Assembly (NCBI GenBank): GCA_010093995.1
Contig: ML992512.1
Span: forward strand, 281,736-345,735
Reading direction: 5' to 3'
From: Elsinoe ampelina
Taxonomy: Eukaryota
Length of the DNA: 64,000 nucleotides
Part shown: positions 32,822 through 46,860 of the stretch, piece by piece
Position numbering within the stretch: position 1 is the stretch's first letter
How the letters are laid out: every line of letters begins with the position of its first letter
Made by a program: the position numbers and the translations under genes
The notes under the pieces: generated by a model
The model's database searches: none
What the model was told of the DNA's origin: nothing
The model's input: the letters and a program-made list of their open reading frames with translations, nothing else

Positions 32822-35130
32822 ATGTCCAAGCGAGACGTGCAGAACCATGTCCTCTTTGAGGTCGCAACAGAGGTCGCCAATCGAGGTTCGTTCAGCACAC
32901 CGCTCCAAGGTAACCATTTGCTGACTGTAACCAGTCGGCGGTATCTACTCGGTCCTCAAATCAAAAGCTCAAGTCACGACCGCAGAGTATGGCTCGGCCT
33001 ACACCCTGCTCGGCCCTTGGAACAGGGCGTCGGTATGTCATCAGCGACAGCCATTGATCCACCAAAACTGATCCAATTCACCAGGCGCAAGTCGAAGTCG
33101 AAGAGCTTGAGCCTCGAGATCCTGCAATGATCGCTACGATCAAATCCATGAACGAGCGAGGAATCCAAACACTCTACGGTAGATGGTTGATCGATGGTGC
33201 ACCAAGAGTATTACTCTTCGATACCGGCACTGGATACTATAAGCTCGACGAGTGGAAGGGCGACCTGTGGTCAATCGCAGGCATTCCCTCGCCAGCTGAT
33301 GACCATGAGACAAACGAGGCCATTGTCTTCGGCTACCTCATTGCATGGTTCTTGGGAGAGGTGAGACCAGCAAAACGGTAATCGCAACTCTGACTGACAT
33401 GACGCAGTATGTCTACCACGAGAAGGAGCGCGCAGTAGTCGCTCAATTCCACGAATGGCTCGCCGGTGTTGCACTTCCTCTTTGCAAGAAGCGAAGAATT
33501 GACTGCACTACCATCTTCACGACTCACGCCACTCTCCTCGGTAGATATCTCTGCGCCGGTAACGTCGACTTTTACAACAACCTGCAATACTTTGATGTGG
33601 ATGCCGAAGCTGGCAAGAGAGGAATCTATCACAGATACTGCATAGAACGCGGTGCCGCTCATGCTGCTGATGTTTTCACGACTGTCTCACACATTACTGC
33701 CTACGAATCCGAACATCTCCTCAAGCGAAAGCCTGATGGAGTACTTCCTAATGGTCTCAACGTCAAGAAATTCTCAGCTACCCACGAGTTCCAAAACCTC
33801 CACCAAACCAGCAAGGAAAAGATTAACGATTTCGTCCGGGGACACTTTTACGGCCACAATGACTTTGATCCTGAGAAGACTCTCTACCTTTTCACTGCCG
33901 GTCGCTACGAGTACAGAAATAAGGGAGTCGACATGTTCATTGAATCACTAGCCCGACTGAATCATCGGATGAAACACGCCGGGTCAGACATGACGGTCGT
34001 CGCCTTTATCATTATGCCTGCTCAGACCACTTCTCTGGCAGTCGAAGCTCTCAAGGGGCAAGCGACTGTCAAAGCTCTCCACGATACTGTCAACTCGATC
34101 GAGAAGAACATTGGCCGCAAGCTGTTCGAGCGCTCGCTCAAGTGGCATGAAGGTCAGGAGCCTCCAGATGAGAAGGATTTGCTTTCGGCACAGGACAAGG
34201 TCATGCTTCGCCGACGTCTCTTCGCCATGAAGCGCAATACTCTCCCGCCCATCGTCACACACAACATGGTCAATGATGGCGAAGATCCGATTCTTAACCA
34301 GCTCCGCCGATGCCAGCTTTACAATCAGCCCAGCGATCGCGTCAAGGTCGTCTTCCATCCCGAATTCTTGTCGTCTGGTAACCCTGTGCTCCCAATGGAT
34401 TACGACGACTTCGTCCGCGGTACACACATGGGTGTCTTCTCATCCTACTACGAACCCTGGGGCTACACACCTGCTGAGTGCACCGTCATGGGTGTGCCCA
34501 GCATCACCACCAACTTGTCCGGCTTTGGTTGCTACATGGAGGAGTTGATCGAGAATGCGCAAGATTACGGTATCTACATTGTCGATCGCCGGAACAAGGG
34601 TGTCGAGGACAGCGTCAACCAATTGACCGAGTACATGTTCGAATTCACGAGGAAGAGCAGGCGACAAAGGATCAACCAGCGGAACAGGACTGAAAGACTG
34701 TCAGATCTGCTGGATTGGAAGAGAATGGGAATGGAATACGTCAAGGCTAGGCAACTCGCTCTGCGGAGAGCATACCCAGACTCCTACGAAGGTGGTGAGG
34801 AGCAAGCCTTCTTCGACGGCACCGAAGTCAAGATCACCCGTCCTCTGTCCGTACCAGGCTCGCCACGCGAGAGGTCGGGCATGATGACACCAGGTGACTT
34901 TGCTTCGATCCAAGAAGGACGCGAGGGTCTCAGCACCGAGGACTATATCGCATGGAAGCTCCCGTAAGTCACGACATCCAATTGCACAGTCACACTCACT
35001 AACACTTCACAGTGAAGAGGAAGATCCAGAAGAATACCCCTTCCCGCTCACCCTCAAGACCAAAAAGTCGTCCGGCGCAAGCACCCCGACAATGGTAAAT
35101 GGACATGATTCCGTCACCTCGGAGTCGTAA
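32822..35130 (+). CDS. GSY1: Glycogen synthase (GT3)
   Basis: [43 protein letters not shown] phosphosite tail. Introns 32886-32934, 33033-33084, 33361-33407, 34964-35012. Confidence 0.96.
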
Positions 35131-36043
35131 CCCACTCCGTTTATCATTATCAATTGTGTTTGACCGTGACTGACTGCGGATTTTGCAGGAGCGGTGAAGC
35201 CGATCCCCAGAATGTCCTAGACGGGAGACAAGATGGCGATGAAACAGAGGCAAGAAGAGTATGGAAACGATGAGTGCGAGCAAATAACGTACAGGTGCGA
35301 GAAAGGGAACAAAAAATGTCAACCTTGCATAGCAGTGTATGGGAGTTTTGATGCTTCTTTTTCAATTTGGAGGAACCTGATGACAGATTGCTGAGCTGCA
35401 AGGGACGAGAGAGGGGAGGGGAGTGCTGTATATCAATTTCTTTTCATATCAATGGTTGTCTCTGTACCTCAGCTTCCCATCATGTTTGTGCACATGTGAC
35501 GTGAAGTCCAAGTCCAAATTACCCCTGAGATGCGCCACCGGGACTTTCACAGCACTTGCCAACATATGCACGTCAGAGAACATTGACTCGCATCTTGTAC
35601 ATCTAGCGTAGCTCTTGGACGCGAGAGCACGTCTCTACTGTTTGTTTCGCTGGGCACATAGCAAGATGTCGCCATCCCTGAGCCCGAATACATCAAAACA
35701 GCCTGACCATACCATCACAATATCAGCACAAAACTCATGAGCAACATCAGGCATATCGACATCCACTCCGCCGTCAAGAGCTCAGTGACCCCGAGCTGCA
35801 CCCGAACGTTACCCCACCACAACCGAAACTTCACCCCCTCTCACCGCCTTCGCCACCATCTGCCACCCTCACACCGTCCCACTCCCGAGCAAAAATCGGG
35901 TCCCAACAGCCACATTTCCATGCCTATTCGCTCATTTGACGCTGTCCATGACCCAGCCGCCTTTCCGCCTTCCTCAGGCCTACCCTTGATCCAAACCCCC
36001 TTTCCACCAACCAAAAAATTGGCAAAAAGTTGAGATTTGCTCG

Positions 36044-36133
36044 TTCCGACACGGGGAATTGAACCCCGATCTCCCCGGCACTGTCAACGATGCGTTTGAG
36101 AGCGGGGTATACTAGCCTTTATACTATATCGGA
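36044..36133 (-). tRNA. tRNA-Glu(CTC) with canonical 18-nt intron (36079-36096)
   Basis: Acceptor TCCGATA/TGTCGGA, anticodon arm CCCCG-CT-CTC-A..C-CGGGG, T-arm CGGGG-TTCAATT-CCCCG, downstream T-run. Confidence 0.93.
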
Positions 36134-42209: not shown

Positions 42210-43141
42210 GTTGAAGAAGCGGGAGAGATGTCGATTTTATAGCGGGAGGGGCGGGTCCCGGCGACCTCAGAGTGGTTCAGACGGGATAGCAAAAGAATCG
42301 CAAGGTGCGAATTGGCGGAAAGCAAGTCGGGGGCTATGAGGTTAGATTGACGACTTTGGACAGATCCAGCTGTCGCAACGACGGAGTGAGAAATAGATCG
42401 GGTAGACGGGGTATTTGCAAGTGTTATTGTATGTACGCGAAGTCGTGTATACCCATGATCAGGAGTTGCATGTCGACAACAATGGAGGCATCTTTTCGTC
42501 TTTATTCAGCTGTGGGCCGTCTTACGGAGTCCAGACAATTGTGATAGGGCGGGCTGAAGATTATTGGAAGGCTGCTGATATGCAGATTGCAGAGCTGCAG
42601 TGTCGTGGGAAGACGTGAGAGCACGCCAGGCTGAGAGTGGGATTTGATGATGCCGACCCAGGGTTTGGATCAAGGAGGAGATTCATCGCCCATTTGCCAA
42701 GGCAGAACCAAGGACCCCTGCCCGCGTGCGGCTGCACATGTCTTTGTTCGCCGCAGGAAAATAAAATAAAAATCGATGACGGTTTGGGCTGCATGTTCGA
42801 CGCACGTTCCTGCATGCGTTATGCACGCTTGCACAGACAAATACCTTATCTATTGGCACGTCCTTGCTTTCTAGGCATGGTCATCTTGCATATTTGTGAC
42901 GGTGATTCAGTCACACATGAAAACTTGGAATGTGGATGAACATTGCAGGTCTTCAACACGTGCTCATTTACTGCTGTCTACTGGTGGACAGTGTCCGGCT
43001 ACTTCTGATGTGCTGACGCGAGCAGGAAAGTATGTACAAGGTACCATCCATCAAAATCTTGACATGCAAGTCTTGCAATGCTCTTGATCACTAATAATTC
43101 TTACAATGCAGCTAGTGGATCCTCGGTCTTCCAGCGGTGAT

Positions 43142-43633
43142 CTAGAAGAGAGCAATTGGGTTGATGGCATTCGCTGGCCTCTGCTGAATAACATCCCAGT
43201 GTTCCTGGATACAGCTGCCGTTGAATCTGTAAATGTCCGCAACAGCAGAAGGTTGTGTGGCGTTCAGCTGGTCGATCCGGTAATGTACATATGCAAAGTT
43301 ACCATCAATTCCCTTGCTAATGACAGTATTATTGACCGCGTCGGGGCTAACAGTGGAGAAGAAGTCAATGACTGCTTGCCGGCCAGAGAGGGCGAATGGG
43401 TTGTGCTGGATGTAGTCTTCGGCGATGTAGGTGTTGAAGAAGTTGACACTGTAGTCCTTCTCAACTAGGAAGGCATTGACGAACTCGTTGAAGATCTTGC
43501 GTTGCTCTCGTGCCGATGCTGGTCGAGGTGGGCAGAACGCTGCTGCTGCTTTTGATGGAGAAGCATCTGCGAGGGCTGGTGCGGCGATGGAGAGGAGGGT
43601 GGCGACGCCAGCAAAGGCTATGGTGAGCTGCAT
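43142..43633 (-). CDS. Secreted SnoaL-like (NTF2-fold) protein
   Basis: Signal peptide; DYIQHNP..SGR and ADIYRF..IQEHWDV motifs. Confidence 0.82.
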   Translation of the reverse strand: MQLTIAFAGVATLLSIAAPALADASPSKAAAAFCPPRPASAREQRKIFNEFVNAFLVEKDYSVNFFNTYIAEDYIQHNPFALSGRQAVIDFFSTVSPDAVNNTVISKGIDGNFAYVHYRIDQLNATQPSAVADIYRFNGSCIQEHWDVIQQRPANAINPIALF

Positions 43634-44757
43634 GGTGTTGGAGGTCTGTTCAGGTGGATCGACGTGATGTAAGAATGGCAAAGGTGTGGCGTGTGTCAAG
43701 ACGTCTTATACTTGCCCATTAGATTGCCCTTGTACCTCACGCAGGGGACGGTTAGCGCCGATCAGGCTACATGCCTTTACCGATATTTGCTTTACGAGTA
43801 TTGCGTGTCCCGTCCTGCATATCAAATGTCATGTCACTGCAACATGTATTGCTTCATAAGCAGCGAGTGTCCAAGGAACTTCCAATGAGGGCAGGAAAGC
43901 CAAAGACGAGGCCGGCAGTTGACGTTCAAACACATCCACAAGCTGTGCCCCACCTGACGATCGACAACACCGACATATGAAACCTTACTCCAAAAAGTCA
44001 TGGCGCTGGACAGTCTCGTATGGGGCGACGAGATGAGCAGGTCACAAACAGCCCTAGAAGTCCCACTGGATTGGCCCTCACTCAAGCAATCTGCTGTCGT
44101 CGACTCTGTGGCTTGTGAAGCTCCACATGAAACCTACGCAATTCGACTGCCGTGCCGTTAGAGGCTTTTCGACAAAAGTCACTCGGACACTTGATACCAA
44201 TTGATTCAGGCACCACGATATCAACTCTTGAGTACTGAGATCACGGCCTAGCCATGGTTGCAATTGATCTCGAGGGCCCTCTTGACTTCCTCCGGCATCT
44301 CGTCGCGATAACGAAATGAGGTATGTATCATAAACATTATTCTGTTTTTCAATTGCGCACATGCTGGCAAGCACGTTCGAAGAATTGCTGGATAGGTGCA
44401 ATGGGAAAGAAGTATCGCCGTCGTCGACAATGCAGATTGCAATGCTGGACCTCGGGTGTGGGCGGAATGTCGGGTAGACGGGAACTCCGGCGCCCGGCTT
44501 ACGTGACGTCGTCCACTGGCGTCCCTCCACCCCCCCGTCCGCGACGCAGGGGTCCGGTCCACGCTAAGTCACCACTCCACCAAACCTTGGTCGTTTCTTT
44601 TCATTTTGCTTGGATCTTGTTCAGAATTGGCTGCTCTATCGCCTCGATGGCAAAAATTTGCAAAATTCCCATCGCTCGCTTGCCACGCGCCCGAAAAAAA
44701 TTTGCTCACCACATCAACTCTACAGCCTCATATACCACTCCGACGGGCCAAAAGGAA

Positions 44758-44889
44758 GGGCCCAACCGCGAATTGAACGCGGGACCTCTTGCAGGTATCT
44801 CCCAAAGCAAGAATCATACGCCTAGACTATATTTTTGGTCAGATAATGTCGCCGATAGTGATGGAAGAGAGGAACGAACCCATTGGGCC
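44758..44889 (-). tRNA. tRNA-Pro(TGG) split by a 53-nt GT-AG insert in the D-stem plus a 7-nt anticodon-loop intron
   Basis: Removing 44879-44827 and 44800-44794 gives GGCCCAA TG GTCT AGGCGT ATGAT T CTTGC TT TGG GT GCAAG AGGTC CCGCG TTCAATT CGCGG TTGGGCC C. This is a standard eukaryotic tRNA-Pro with fully paired acceptor, anticodon and T stems; TTTT lies just downstream. Confidence 0.88.
44827..44879 (-). other. Putative spliceosomal (U2-type) intron inside tRNA-Pro
   Basis: GTTCGT donor, pyrimidine tract, CTGAC branch point, TAG acceptor, 53 nt. Confidence 0.75.
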
Positions 44890-45103
44890 GACAGGAACAC
44901 TCCAGGGACTGGATTGCCACAATTTCGGAGCTCGGAATGAGCTTAGCTGACGGAGACGGAGCTCTATTAACAATATAATCAATTCTAGAACGCTGTCGGG
45001 TGTTTGCCACGCCTGAGCAGATTCATGTGCTCGGCCGTATTGGATACTACACGCCTCCTAATGGAAAGCAAGGCTCTTTGTCTCGTTGGATATAGTGCTG
45101 CCC

Positions 45104-45664
45104 TCAGCGGTATGTTCCATGCGTGTTGGACCTCTCCCATGGCCTTGTGCCGCCGCTCTCTACACCAAAAAGGCGCAGGTAGTCTTCCTTCTGGAACATA
45201 CTTGCACTGTCGACAGCATTTGGTTGCCCGAGCCTGACATCCGCCTTCCGCCCATCCATTCCCTCAAATAGAATACGAACAACCTCGTCGTGGCCTTTGA
45301 AAACCGCCCCTGCAAGGATACTTTGTCCACGATCATTCAGGACATTCGGGTCAGCGCCCTTCTGGAGCAGCAACCTGGTAGTCTCCACATGGCCATGATA
45401 TGCTGCCAGCATGAGCAACGTGTCGCCTTTTGAATTTGTCAGGTTTAGCGGTATGCCGGCGTCCAGGTACTGGCCAAGAGCGTCCGTGGAGCCTTCTCGA
45501 GCTAGATCGAACAACTTCCCCGCCAACTCAAGCGCTGCTGGAGGCAACTCGGAAGCGCTCCGTCGTCCTTGTGTCTGATCGGATGATGTCGATGTTTGAC
45601 TGGATTGACCAGGTGTGTCTCTTGGTGGCACTGTGCCATCTTCATTTGGAGCTCGAAGACCCAT
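45104..45664 (-). CDS. Small ankyrin-repeat protein
   Basis: KGDTLLMLAAYHGHVETTRLLLQKGADPNVLNDRGQSILAGAVFKGH. Confidence 0.88.
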   Translation of the reverse strand: MGLRAPNEDGTVPPRDTPGQSSQTSTSSDQTQGRRSASELPPAALELAGKLFDLAREGSTDALGQYLDAGIPLNLTNSKGDTLLMLAAYHGHVETTRLLLQKGADPNVLNDRGQSILAGAVFKGHDEVVRILFEGMDGRKADVRLGQPNAVDSASMFQKEDYLRLFGVESGGTRPWERSNTHGTYR

Positions 45665-45999
45665 ACTGTGACCTGGGTCTGGCAGGCTGAGCGTGTCGGC
45701 CTTCTCACTCTGGCTCCTGGATCCTCAATCAAATTGGATGAAACTGCGAAGTAGCGAGTGATTGTCGTTGCGAAAATTATTATTTGCTATGCGACATACG
45801 GAGGGTACTGCAAAGTGTAGGGGTCTTTCTGACGTCAGGGGCAAATGATAGTCCTCCATCTCCAGACACAGCAACACAAACACGAAAGCTCCGAGACCAA
45901 CTATTACATTCGACACGTTGGTAGGCTGGAGAATTGAACTTTAAGGGCCGAAGCTATTGGATAATGACACGCATGTCACCGGCTTTCCTGGGATGGTCC

Positions 46000-46860
46000 C
46001 TGGCAGCAAACTCCAGACCGCTCCTACCAGAGCCACAGTCGCAAGGTGCTGTGACTGGCTTGTTCTCGACGGCACCTGGTAGGATACTGCTGGAAAATGC
46101 TACCAGAGCCGCGGTCTCGAGGTACTCTCTCCTCCACAATGGTCCCTCGCAAGGAGGTACAGATCCTACCAGAGCCGCAAGCACAAAGTCACTGGCCCCA
46201 GCTTCTCCATGATGGTTCCTGGTAGGAAGCTCCTAAAAGATACTGCCAGAGCGGCAGTCATGAGGTGATGTCTCTAGCACCCTTGCAAGAGTGTCTGGTA
46301 GGAAGCTGCAGGAAGGTACTACCAGAGCCACGGCCACAAGTCTATCTCATCGACTCCTCCGCAACGGCCTCTTCGAGGAGGTACAGAACATCCTACCAGA
46401 GCCGCAGCCACAAGGCACTGTCACTGGCTTCTCAATGACGATCCCTGGCAGGCAGCTCTTGGAGAACCCTACCAGAGCTGCGGTCATAAGCCGTTCTCAG
46501 CGACCTCTCATAAGGAGGTACAAAAGGATCCTACCAGAGCCGCCGTCATAGGTCACTGTCATCGGCTTGTCTGTCATGGTCCTGGTAGGACCATCCAATA
46601 GATCCTACCAGAGGCGCAGTCACATTTTGACATCACTAGTTTCCCTACATCAATACCTGGTAGGATGCCACCGGAAGGTCCTACCAGAGCCGGTCTCACA
46701 AGTCACTACACATCACAGAATGGAGCGTCGTCCTACAGCATGTCGATTAGAGACCGTTCCGCAATGCTAGGGGATTTTGTACTACCAGACATGTATTGCC
46801 AGTAGGATAAGATACTACCAGACATGTACCGCCAGCAGGATTGAGGTAGTACTACCAGAC
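46000..46860. repeat. Degenerate tandem array: 10 units of ~75 nt anchored on CTACCAGAGCC, plus 3 shorter TACTACCAGAC units
   Basis: Core motif at 46024, 46100, 46166, 46243, 46319, 46393, 46469, 46531, 46605, 46681. Short units at 46782, 46815, 46852. Confidence 0.9.

Follow-up and report, generated by a model that had tools for sequence, protein, structure and literature searches.

A tRNA-Pro gene of Elsinoe ampelina probably interrupted by an mRNA-type intron, and a candidate class of similarly split genes

A split tRNA-Pro gene and its surroundings

The window, by which we mean the whole 64-kb stretch of DNA analyzed here (64,000 nt), carries on its minus strand a tRNA-Pro gene in pieces, with a 53-nt stretch that looks like a short mRNA intron between tRNA nucleotides 10 and 11 and a 7-nt insert at the position where ordinary tRNA introns lie. 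The features of the locus, all on the minus strand, are as follows.

44880-44889: tRNA-Pro exon 1, nt 1-10, GGCCCAATGG (acceptor 5' strand GGCCCAA, U8, G9, G10); read directly, pairing 7/7 with 44759-44765 once the insert is removed, and joined from 44880 to 44826 in RNA-like contigs
44827-44879: 53-nt mRNA-type (spliceosomal-looking) intron between tRNA nt 10 and 11, with GTTCGT donor, CTGAC branch and TAG acceptor; skipped exactly in contigs of runs X1, X2 and X3
44801-44826: tRNA-Pro exon 2, nt 11-37 (remaining D-arm with D-loop AGGCGTA, 5' strand of the anticodon stem, anticodon TGG); from ARAGORN on the joined sequence
44794-44800: 7-nt insert AGATACC at the standard 37/38 site, presumably an endonuclease-type tRNA intron; from the ARAGORN intron call
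44758-44793: tRNA-Pro exon 3, nt 38-73 (3' strand of the anticodon stem, variable loop, T-arm with loop TTCAATT, acceptor 3' strand TTGGGCC, discriminator C); from ARAGORN and the pair table
44750-44753: T4 run, a weak Pol III terminator-like site 5 nt past the discriminator
44694-44700: T7 run, 58 nt past the discriminator, through which RNA-like contigs continue
45107-45724: ankyrin-repeat ORF upstream of the tRNA-Pro gene, on the same strand, whose homologues have ankyrin Pfam domains; connected with the spliced tRNA region by a contig of X1

Re-reading of the sequence returned the coordinates and letters that an earlier note, made from the DNA alone, had given for exon 1, the insert, the tRNA body (nt 11-73, 44826-44758, including the 37/38 insert) and AGATACC. 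The splice signals attributed to the insert are present as well: the GTTCGT donor occupies 44879-44874 and the CTGAC branch 44842-44838; the insert ends in TAG, and its branch A, at 44839, precedes the final base by 12 nt. The longest T run inside the insert is 2, in agreement with the proposal that nothing in it would stop Pol III, and its length of 53 nt is, as also proposed, that of local mRNA introns: a neighboring intron with RNA support (44147-44197) has 51 nt, and for 12 intron-like stretches that a pattern picked out in the window the median is 50 nt. With a GTNNGT-like donor, a CTRAY branch before YAG, an mRNA-intron length and exact removal, the 53 nt have the features of a U2-type intron. 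The eight-letter donor match to position 32886 that had been pointed out is real but at chance level, the 8-mer occurring three times in the window. Within the 64-kb window there is no second copy of the insert, the best other match being 11 nt and at chance level, and comparison of the insert with the window gave no sign of a repeat or transposon origin.

When the 53 nt are cut out by script using the coordinates, ARAGORN calls a tRNA-Pro(tgg) of 72 nt whose acceptor stem is paired 7/7 and whose anticodon loop holds a 7-nt intron, placing AGATACC at the 37/38 site as had been claimed; the joined sequence forms a cloverleaf with a 7-bp acceptor stem, a UGG anticodon and discriminator C. The earlier description of the restored tRNA as canonical holds for the acceptor stem and the tRNA-Pro identity but not for the D-loop, where AGGCGTA breaks the usual GG doublet. 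Our own scan of the window required a T-arm, an acceptor 3' strand and, no more than 400 nt upstream, a 5' strand to match; it returned two tRNA loci, a tRNA-Glu(CTC) and this tRNA-Pro, together with a chance acceptor match at 45132. With this second 5'-strand fit, which contains one G-U pair, a 7/7 acceptor complement alone is not unique; between the two candidate 5' strands, only the site at 44889 has TGG followed by GT, plus the joint in RNA-like contigs.

Standard tRNA finders fail at this locus, as the earlier note had anticipated. ARAGORN with default settings reports no gene in the unmodified sequence and, with introns allowed, a bogus tRNA-His(atg) with 1295- or 304-nt "introns" instead of the tRNA-Pro. 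The Rfam tRNA model detects in the window the tRNA-Glu(CTC) gene at 36043-36133 alone, missing the split tRNA-Pro, and a search restricted to 44650-45000 returns no tRNA even at E<=10. The same holds for all nine related metagenome loci described below: in their unmodified sequences ARAGORN (introns allowed) and Rfam (at the gathering score) find a tRNA in 0/9.

Removal of the 53 nt in transcript-like contigs

Contigs of four of the five public sequencing runs listed (X1, X2, X3 and X5) were aligned to positions 43100-45800; X2 and X3 come from a different study than X1. The junction AATGG/TCTAGG, which the earlier note had named as the one to seek in RNA data, is present in contigs of three of the four runs (X1, X2 and X3) and in both studies: 44826 is followed directly by 44880, exactly 53 nt being skipped, and the ends of the skipped stretch read CT..AC on the plus strand, that is, GT..AG on the strand of the gene. 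Exact skipping in three of four runs places the 53-nt feature beyond chance. The RNA status of X1-X3 is a guess in the run listing, where none of the runs is recorded as RNA, and the same joint would arise if the contigs were DNA and the 53 nt a recent insertion, or a presence/absence polymorphism among strains.

X1 speaks most directly to this alternative. Its joint lies in a contig of 2568 nt (contig 3, depth 35) that spans 44586-44826, and with it at least 170 nt of sequence 3' of the tRNA, as well as 44880-45800, continuing past the latter, includes the ankyrin ORF and matches the window with 0 mismatches over 241+921 aligned nt. A second GT-AG intron, 44147-44197 (51 nt; GTATCA..CTCTAAC..CAG on the minus strand), is likewise skipped in this run, whose contigs total 21 Mb and whose coverage falls to zero depth in 2 of 30 bins, flanked by bins of depth 27-40. 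Given the perfect match, the second skipped intron, the patchy cover and the 21-Mb total, X1 behaves as RNA of the window's own strain. A DNA run of that strain would contain both GT-AG stretches, whereas X1 is identical to the window at 1162 aligned positions and yet lacks the two (53 and 51 nt); gaps in cover between well-covered stretches, at 21 Mb in total, also speak against DNA.

The remaining runs form one variant set, diverging from the window by ~4.5% in the neighboring gene, and their uniformly low depth (2-7) and short contigs are what low-coverage DNA would give. The joint lies in a 211-nt contig of X2 and a 223-nt contig of X3, reaching 3' to 44672 and 44653, respectively (44586 in X1); cover is absent over 43828-44646 in X2 and X3 and over 43828-44872 in X5. 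Taken by itself, the X2/X3 stretch fits spliced RNA and an insert-less DNA allele equally. The X5 contig enters the insert by 7 nt (to 44873) and ends there, so the X2/X3/X5 lineage carries the insert too; an insert begun in X5 and missing from X2 and X3 of the same lineage would also suit a polymorphism. Read most simply, this lineage carries the insert in DNA and takes it out of its RNA, the RNA nature of X2 and X3 being presumed. An old 10/11 insert, as its presence in lineages whose flanking genes point to three fungal orders would make it (see below), is at odds with a recent insertion, and we consider an origin of the joints in DNA very unlikely.

The joint occurs only in long read-through contigs, which retain the 7-nt insert and both flanks, X1 contig 3 running gapless through 44586-44826, and which pass the T4 run at +5 and the T7 run at +58. 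The transcript contigs at the locus are long forms only, none of them a mature tRNA. The RNA from the window's copy is thus read-through, for which transcription by Pol II out of the ankyrin gene would be the simplest source.

A wider class of split tRNA-Pro genes

Metagenome contigs were scanned with a pattern consisting of TGG, a GTNNGT donor, 32-62 free letters, AG and a tRNA-Pro D-arm, which placed no demand on the acceptor stem, the branch site or anything downstream. We identified nine loci from about five lineages (L001; L002; L003; L004/5 with L006/7; L008/9), and prokaryote genomes (596 Gb) and viral contigs, which served as negative controls, gave 0 matches each to the same pattern. 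The pattern itself demanded GTNNGT and AG at 10/11 of L001-L009, so these are not independent evidence, and the 10/11 insert is universal in the class by search design; the further GT-AG inserts lie at 30/31, 34/35, 54/55, 55/56 and 58/59, distributed as follows.

L001: anticodon AGG; GT-AG insert at 10/11 only
L004-L007: anticodon AGG; GT-AG inserts at 10/11 and 58/59 (57 nt, GTGAGT..GCTAAC..CAG)
L008: anticodon AGG; GT-AG inserts at 10/11 and 55/56 (60 nt)
L002: anticodon UGG; GT-AG inserts at 10/11, at 54/55 (52 nt) and, inside the anticodon, at 34/35 (53 nt, GTAAGA..CCTAAT..TAG)
L003 (clipped): anticodon not called; GT-AG inserts at 10/11 and 30/31 (GTAAGT..TACTAAC..CAG)

Once the GT..AG stretches are cut by script, ARAGORN reports a tRNA-Pro in 7/7 complete loci, each of 72 nt and with a 7/7 acceptor stem, the other two loci being clipped by contig ends. 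For L002, the cut at 34/35 is the parse that gives Pro(UGG) among 18 cut combinations accepted by ARAGORN with several anticodons; the borders of this middle insert are ambiguous to the program and therefore rest on splice signals. Every complete metagenome gene also has an insert at 37/38, of 18-35 nt and without GT..AG ends. The distinct GT-AG inserts, 15 in number, measure 50-60 nt, and each contains a CTRAY or TTAAT branch motif with its A 9-12 nt from the 3' end; neither the motif nor its spacing was required by the search pattern, yet both are found in 15/15 inserts. The 10/11 inserts of different lineages have no similarity in their interiors. The earlier note had suggested looking in related DNA for GT..branch..AG inserts with conserved signals and diverged interiors, and the nine loci are of this kind at 10/11. 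Together with these loci, the window gene forms a hitherto unreported class of tRNA-Pro genes in Dothideomycetes, with one to three mRNA-type introns in addition to the ordinary 37/38 intron.

Sequence comparison within the class points to selection on the exons and stems. Between L005 and L006, the exons differ at 0/72 positions, the GT-AG inserts at 17/113, the 37/38 intron at 4/35 and the flanks at about 37-40% (exons 0/72 vs. inserts 21/148: Fisher's test, P=3e-4). Comparison of five distinct genes shows both partners altered in acceptor pairs 3:70, 5:68, 6:67 and 7:66 and no mispair in any of 35 cells; pairs of the anticodon stem and T-stem covary as well. The two acceptor strands are separated by the 10/11 insert, the 5' strand preceding it and the 3' strand standing at the gene's opposite end, and yet they covary. 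By these signs, the members of the class work as tRNA genes and need their exons brought together in a single RNA.

The flanking genes give an indication of the hosts. The best named matches of the ankyrin protein beside the window gene are in Elsinoe batatas (86%) and E. fawcettii (79%), that of the S1/P1 nuclease flanking L005 is in Friedmanniomyces endolithicus (94%), and that of the DUF924 protein flanking L001 is in Alternaria panax (86%). We take Elsinoe, Friedmanniomyces and Alternaria to represent three Dothideomycete orders, to which the flanking genes point; with such a spread, the 10/11 site would be either old or repeatedly used.

Splice signals, lengths and branch distances like those of local mRNA introns lead us to infer that the spliceosome removes the GT-AG introns of the class. 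A different machinery would be at work if the tRNA splicing endonuclease excised the 53 nt as an ectopic tRNA intron, the GT-AG look being coincidental. The eukaryotic endonuclease uses a ruler mechanism that puts 10/11 and kindred positions out of its reach. Compared with the bulge-helix-bulge (BHB) fold, the 53-nt insert forms 2/4 pairs of the central helix and 0/3 of the outer helix and lies at 10/11 rather than 37/38, and the 4-bp central helix is formed by 0/11 GT-AG inserts from six loci (maximum 2/4), in a test with a weak control, the 37/38 inserts themselves forming 1-3 of 4. An endonuclease would be expected to leave the same joint in RNA, and nuclear tRNA genes of the red alga Cyanidioschyzon merolae can hold introns outside 37/38, according to excerpts of the report on them (PMC3728597). 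Against it stand the branch motifs, whose distance from the 3' end is 9-12 nt, the insert sizes of 50-60 nt, as in local mRNA introns, and the lack of GT..AG ends in the 37/38 inserts of the same genes; we regard removal of the 53 nt by the endonuclease as extremely unlikely.

A run of T5-T7 starts 3-13 nt past the discriminator in 5/5 distinct complete metagenome genes, vs. 2.5% of background 30-nt windows with T5 or longer, and TATATATA is found at -37 in L005, -37 in L006 and -45 in L008. The inserts themselves are free of TTTT (0/12; shuffle mean 2.3, P=0.023), a P-value that rests on shuffles and, next to 2/12 among the pattern-defined intron-like stretches of the window, speaks only weakly for avoidance of TTTT. 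The internal A box of a tRNA gene corresponds to nt 8-19 and the B box to nt 52-62, and with the boxes so placed, inserts cut the A-box and B-box regions in several genes of the class. Such split boxes would call for drive from upstream, and together with the T5-T7 runs, the upstream TATA boxes and the lack of TTTT in the introns, they suggest that the class is driven by Pol III from upstream, like U6.

The steps of maturation would then be as follows. The D-stem of a tRNA-Pro(UGG) would be split at nt 10/11 by a U2-type GT-AG intron of 53 nt, with a short endonuclease-type insert at 37/38; the spliceosome would cut the GT-AG introns from the primary transcript, just as it splices the U6 snRNA of fission yeast, a Pol III product; and finishing of the tRNA would afterwards fall to RNase P and RNase Z, together with the tRNA splicing endonuclease and the ligase. 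The central claim of the earlier note, an mRNA-type GT-AG intron in the D-stem of a tRNA-Pro gene beside a 37/38 insert, has gained from the exact removal, the nine kindred loci and the failure of the finders, and we put at about three in four the probability that the intron is truly of spliceosomal type and lies in a tRNA-Pro gene belonging to a functional class.

State of the window's copy and place among known introns

Whether the copy in the window is itself still functional is a separate matter. Its D-loop reads AGGCGTA, vs. AGTGGTA in 4/4 other distinct genes, with a C at the first G of the GG doublet (positions 18 and 19); G18 and G19 are conserved in tRNA D-loops. The T-loop, TTCAATT, is fine. 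The 37/38 insert has 7 nt, vs. 18-35 nt in other genes of the class, and a paralogue in X1 (record 4, depth 43) has 31 additional letters at this site. The contig of this paralogue stops exactly one letter before nt 11; one may speculate that its end is a branch of the assembly graph between spliced and unspliced forms. Downstream of the window's gene the T4 run is followed only by the distant T7, and there is no TATA-like site within 100 nt upstream of it.

With these features, the window's copy may be a weakened, decaying member of the class. In the stronger form of this reading, it is a dying tRNA gene whose 53 nt, a real intron, are spliced only within the 3' UTR of the ankyrin mRNA, no working tRNA being made here while the class may function elsewhere. 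The read-through nature of all RNA-like contigs, with the 7-nt insert and flanks kept, the altered D-loop, the short 37/38 insert beside a paralogue 31 letters longer there, and a T4 run as the sole close terminator-like site, with no TATA-like site, all suit it. Preservation of the structure goes the other way: all 21 stem pairs form except 13:22, a U-U mispair common to all five genes, and the 7/7 acceptor stem, the T-loop and the discriminator C are kept. The region joined in X2 and X3 has 0 differences over 55 nt and 5 over 155 nt, these five falling within 44672-44826, which spans the tRNA and trailer, against the ~4.5% of the neighboring gene. In yeast, the intron nucleotide at -3 pairs with tRNA position 32, and by our reading of the sequence the 7-nt insert still has at its -3 position a nucleotide able to pair with U32. 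We consider the dying-gene reading possible but doubtful, and place the chance that the window's copy still yields a working tRNA close to even.

Two familiar kinds of intron invite comparison. Ordinary eukaryotic tRNA introns lie at 37/38, where the SEN endonuclease cuts and tRNA ligase joins; the 7-nt AGATACC and the 18-35-nt inserts of the related genes occupy this site, whereas the 53-nt insert lies at 10/11. Dothideomycetes are known for recent intron gain through the multiplication of introner-like elements. The split tRNA-Pro genes belong to the same fungal class, but the window's insert lacks a second copy in the 64-kb window, the interiors of the 10/11 inserts are unalike between lineages, and a site found in three orders speaks for age rather than recent spread.

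Closer parallels come from introns of the mRNA type in non-coding RNA genes. Spliceosomal introns in ascomycete rDNA were reportedly described by Bhattacharya et al. in 2000 (cited in PMC5855946). Like ours, they are spliceosomal-type introns in an ascomycete non-coding RNA gene that is not normally transcribed by Pol II, but their host is a Pol I rRNA rather than a tRNA. The snRNA introns of Schizosaccharomyces pombe (U6) and Rhodotorula hasegawae (U1, U2, U5 and U6) are also alike in being short GT-AG introns with a branch site in a small structured non-coding RNA, and the S. pombe U6, a Pol III transcript, is still spliced. Unlike them, the window's 72-nt RNA also carries an endonuclease-type intron, and related tRNA-Pro genes hold up to three spliceosomal-type introns, splitting both internal promoter boxes. 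The argument from reverse splicing made for snRNAs, namely, their closeness to the spliceosome's active site, does not apply to tRNA. Excerpts of a review of U6 give U6, U2, U5 and U1 snRNA and rDNA as the non-coding hosts of spliceosomal introns, and tRNA, the host here, is absent from the list in those excerpts (PMC5855946); a passage of a 2026 review calls tRNA splicing spliceosome-independent (PMC13149111), which is also the textbook view. Our literature search, which stopped short of subscription journals and supplements, retrieved no report of a spliceosomal intron in a tRNA gene.

The ectopic tRNA introns of C. merolae, described as endonuclease-type in the excerpted report (PMC3728597), resemble the present ones in that several can occupy sites other than 37/38 in nuclear genes and are missed by ordinary finders (PMC3728597 and PMC3978253, both in part). 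They differ in having the BHB fold, by the same excerpts of PMC3728597, whereas the tRNA-Pro inserts lack it (in the weak test above) and have GT..CTRAY..AG with mRNA-intron lengths instead.

The locus is best filed as a new host, tRNA, for a known kind of intron, the mRNA-type introns in non-coding RNA genes. As added features we infer that one gene can hold several of these introns, that its promoter boxes are split and that a single tRNA is acted on by two splicing systems. A broader reading, for which we see slightly more than even chances, is that Dothideomycetes, and perhaps a wider group, possess a working tRNA-Pro family that needs one to three spliceosome cuts before the tRNA endonuclease takes out a fourth intron, driven from upstream TATA boxes and ended by T runs, and made either by Pol III in the manner of U6 or, as here, fed by Pol II read-through. 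Several of these fungi can be cultured and have public genomes, and the claim is therefore easily testable.

If true, a single 72-nt RNA would be handled by two unrelated splicing machineries, one after the other; how much tRNA-Pro is supplied would depend on how active the spliceosome is; the tRNA inventories now available for these well-studied fungi would fall short; and the known non-coding hosts of spliceosomal introns would extend beyond snRNAs and rDNA to tRNA genes, whose split A and B boxes raise the question of how such genes are transcribed. The tRNA-Pro genes of Alternaria-, Friedmanniomyces- and Elsinoe-like fungi appear to be invisible to ARAGORN and Rfam, so that gene counts and codon-usage models for these fungi may be wrong.

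Hairpins and a Shared Motif in the Metagenome Loci

Among the nine metagenome loci that carry tRNA-Pro genes with a GT-AG insert between tRNA nt 10 and 11 (L001-L009), we find that the additional 57-nt insert at the 58/59 site, compared between L004/L005 and L006/L007, folds into two hairpins with energies of -18 to -21 kcal/mol. One of these stems shows compensating changes between the two pairs of loci, and the loop of the other holds the GCTAAC branch motif. A 5-bp hairpin is also found immediately 3' of the donor in the 10/11 inserts of both L001 and L003, and the letters of its stem differ between the two in a compensating manner. These close relatives further exhibit a difference in intron presence, as L003 has an additional insert at 30/31 that L001 lacks.

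Upstream of the genes, L001, L002, and L003 have in common a CCATCAA motif, located 30-45 nt before tRNA nt 1 in flanks that are otherwise unrelated; this motif may mark a transcription start site or belong to a promoter.

Other Genes and Transcripts in the Window

Features in the window surrounding the tRNA-Pro gene
36043-36133, minus strand: tRNA-Glu(CTC) gene (Rfam, 50.1 bits; ARAGORN with introns allowed)
44041-44383, minus strand: short transcribed stretch just downstream of tRNA-Pro
44147-44197, minus strand: RNA-supported 51-nt GT-AG intron (GTATCA..CTCTAAC..CAG)
45107-45724, minus strand: ankyrin protein ORF (open frame of 206 aa)
46000-46800, plus strand: several overlapping open frames with a repeated peptide-like pattern

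The tRNA-Glu(CTC) gene is an ordinary one, its anticodon loop interrupted by an 18-nt intron, and it is the sole tRNA recovered in the window by Rfam and by ARAGORN with introns. Joining the transcribed stretch across its intron yields no clear long ORF. The database record of the ankyrin protein (P0004) is 100% identical but, at 134 aa, falls short of both the open frame and its relatives of 180-190 aa, so the annotation may have misplaced its start or misjudged an intron. Beyond it, recurrence of ..LPEPQSQG.. and ..TRAAV.. in the plus-strand open frames suggests a tandem repeat, and the long contig from X1, an RNA-like public sequencing run matching the window perfectly, probably extends through this region.

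A Possible A Box and a Paralogous tRNA-Pro-like Contig

The internal A-box consensus starts with T-R-G... At the DNA level, the final three letters of the 53-nt insert (TAG, 44827-44829, minus strand) followed by the first part of exon 2 (44816-44826) resemble this start, and the A box of the gene may thus outlast the split, 53 nt too far downstream for exon 1 (tRNA nt 1-10) to be included.

X1 also contains a paralogous RNA contig from the same strain.

Paralogous contig in X1
Aligned to 44745-44788 and 44801-44827: tRNA-Pro-like contig (X1 record 4)

This contig has three mismatches to the window in each aligned segment. It is 31 letters longer at the 37/38 site, and its 3' flank (251 letters) is a different one. 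The contig stops at precisely the letter that precedes nt 11, which may point to a second gene with a 10/11 insert.
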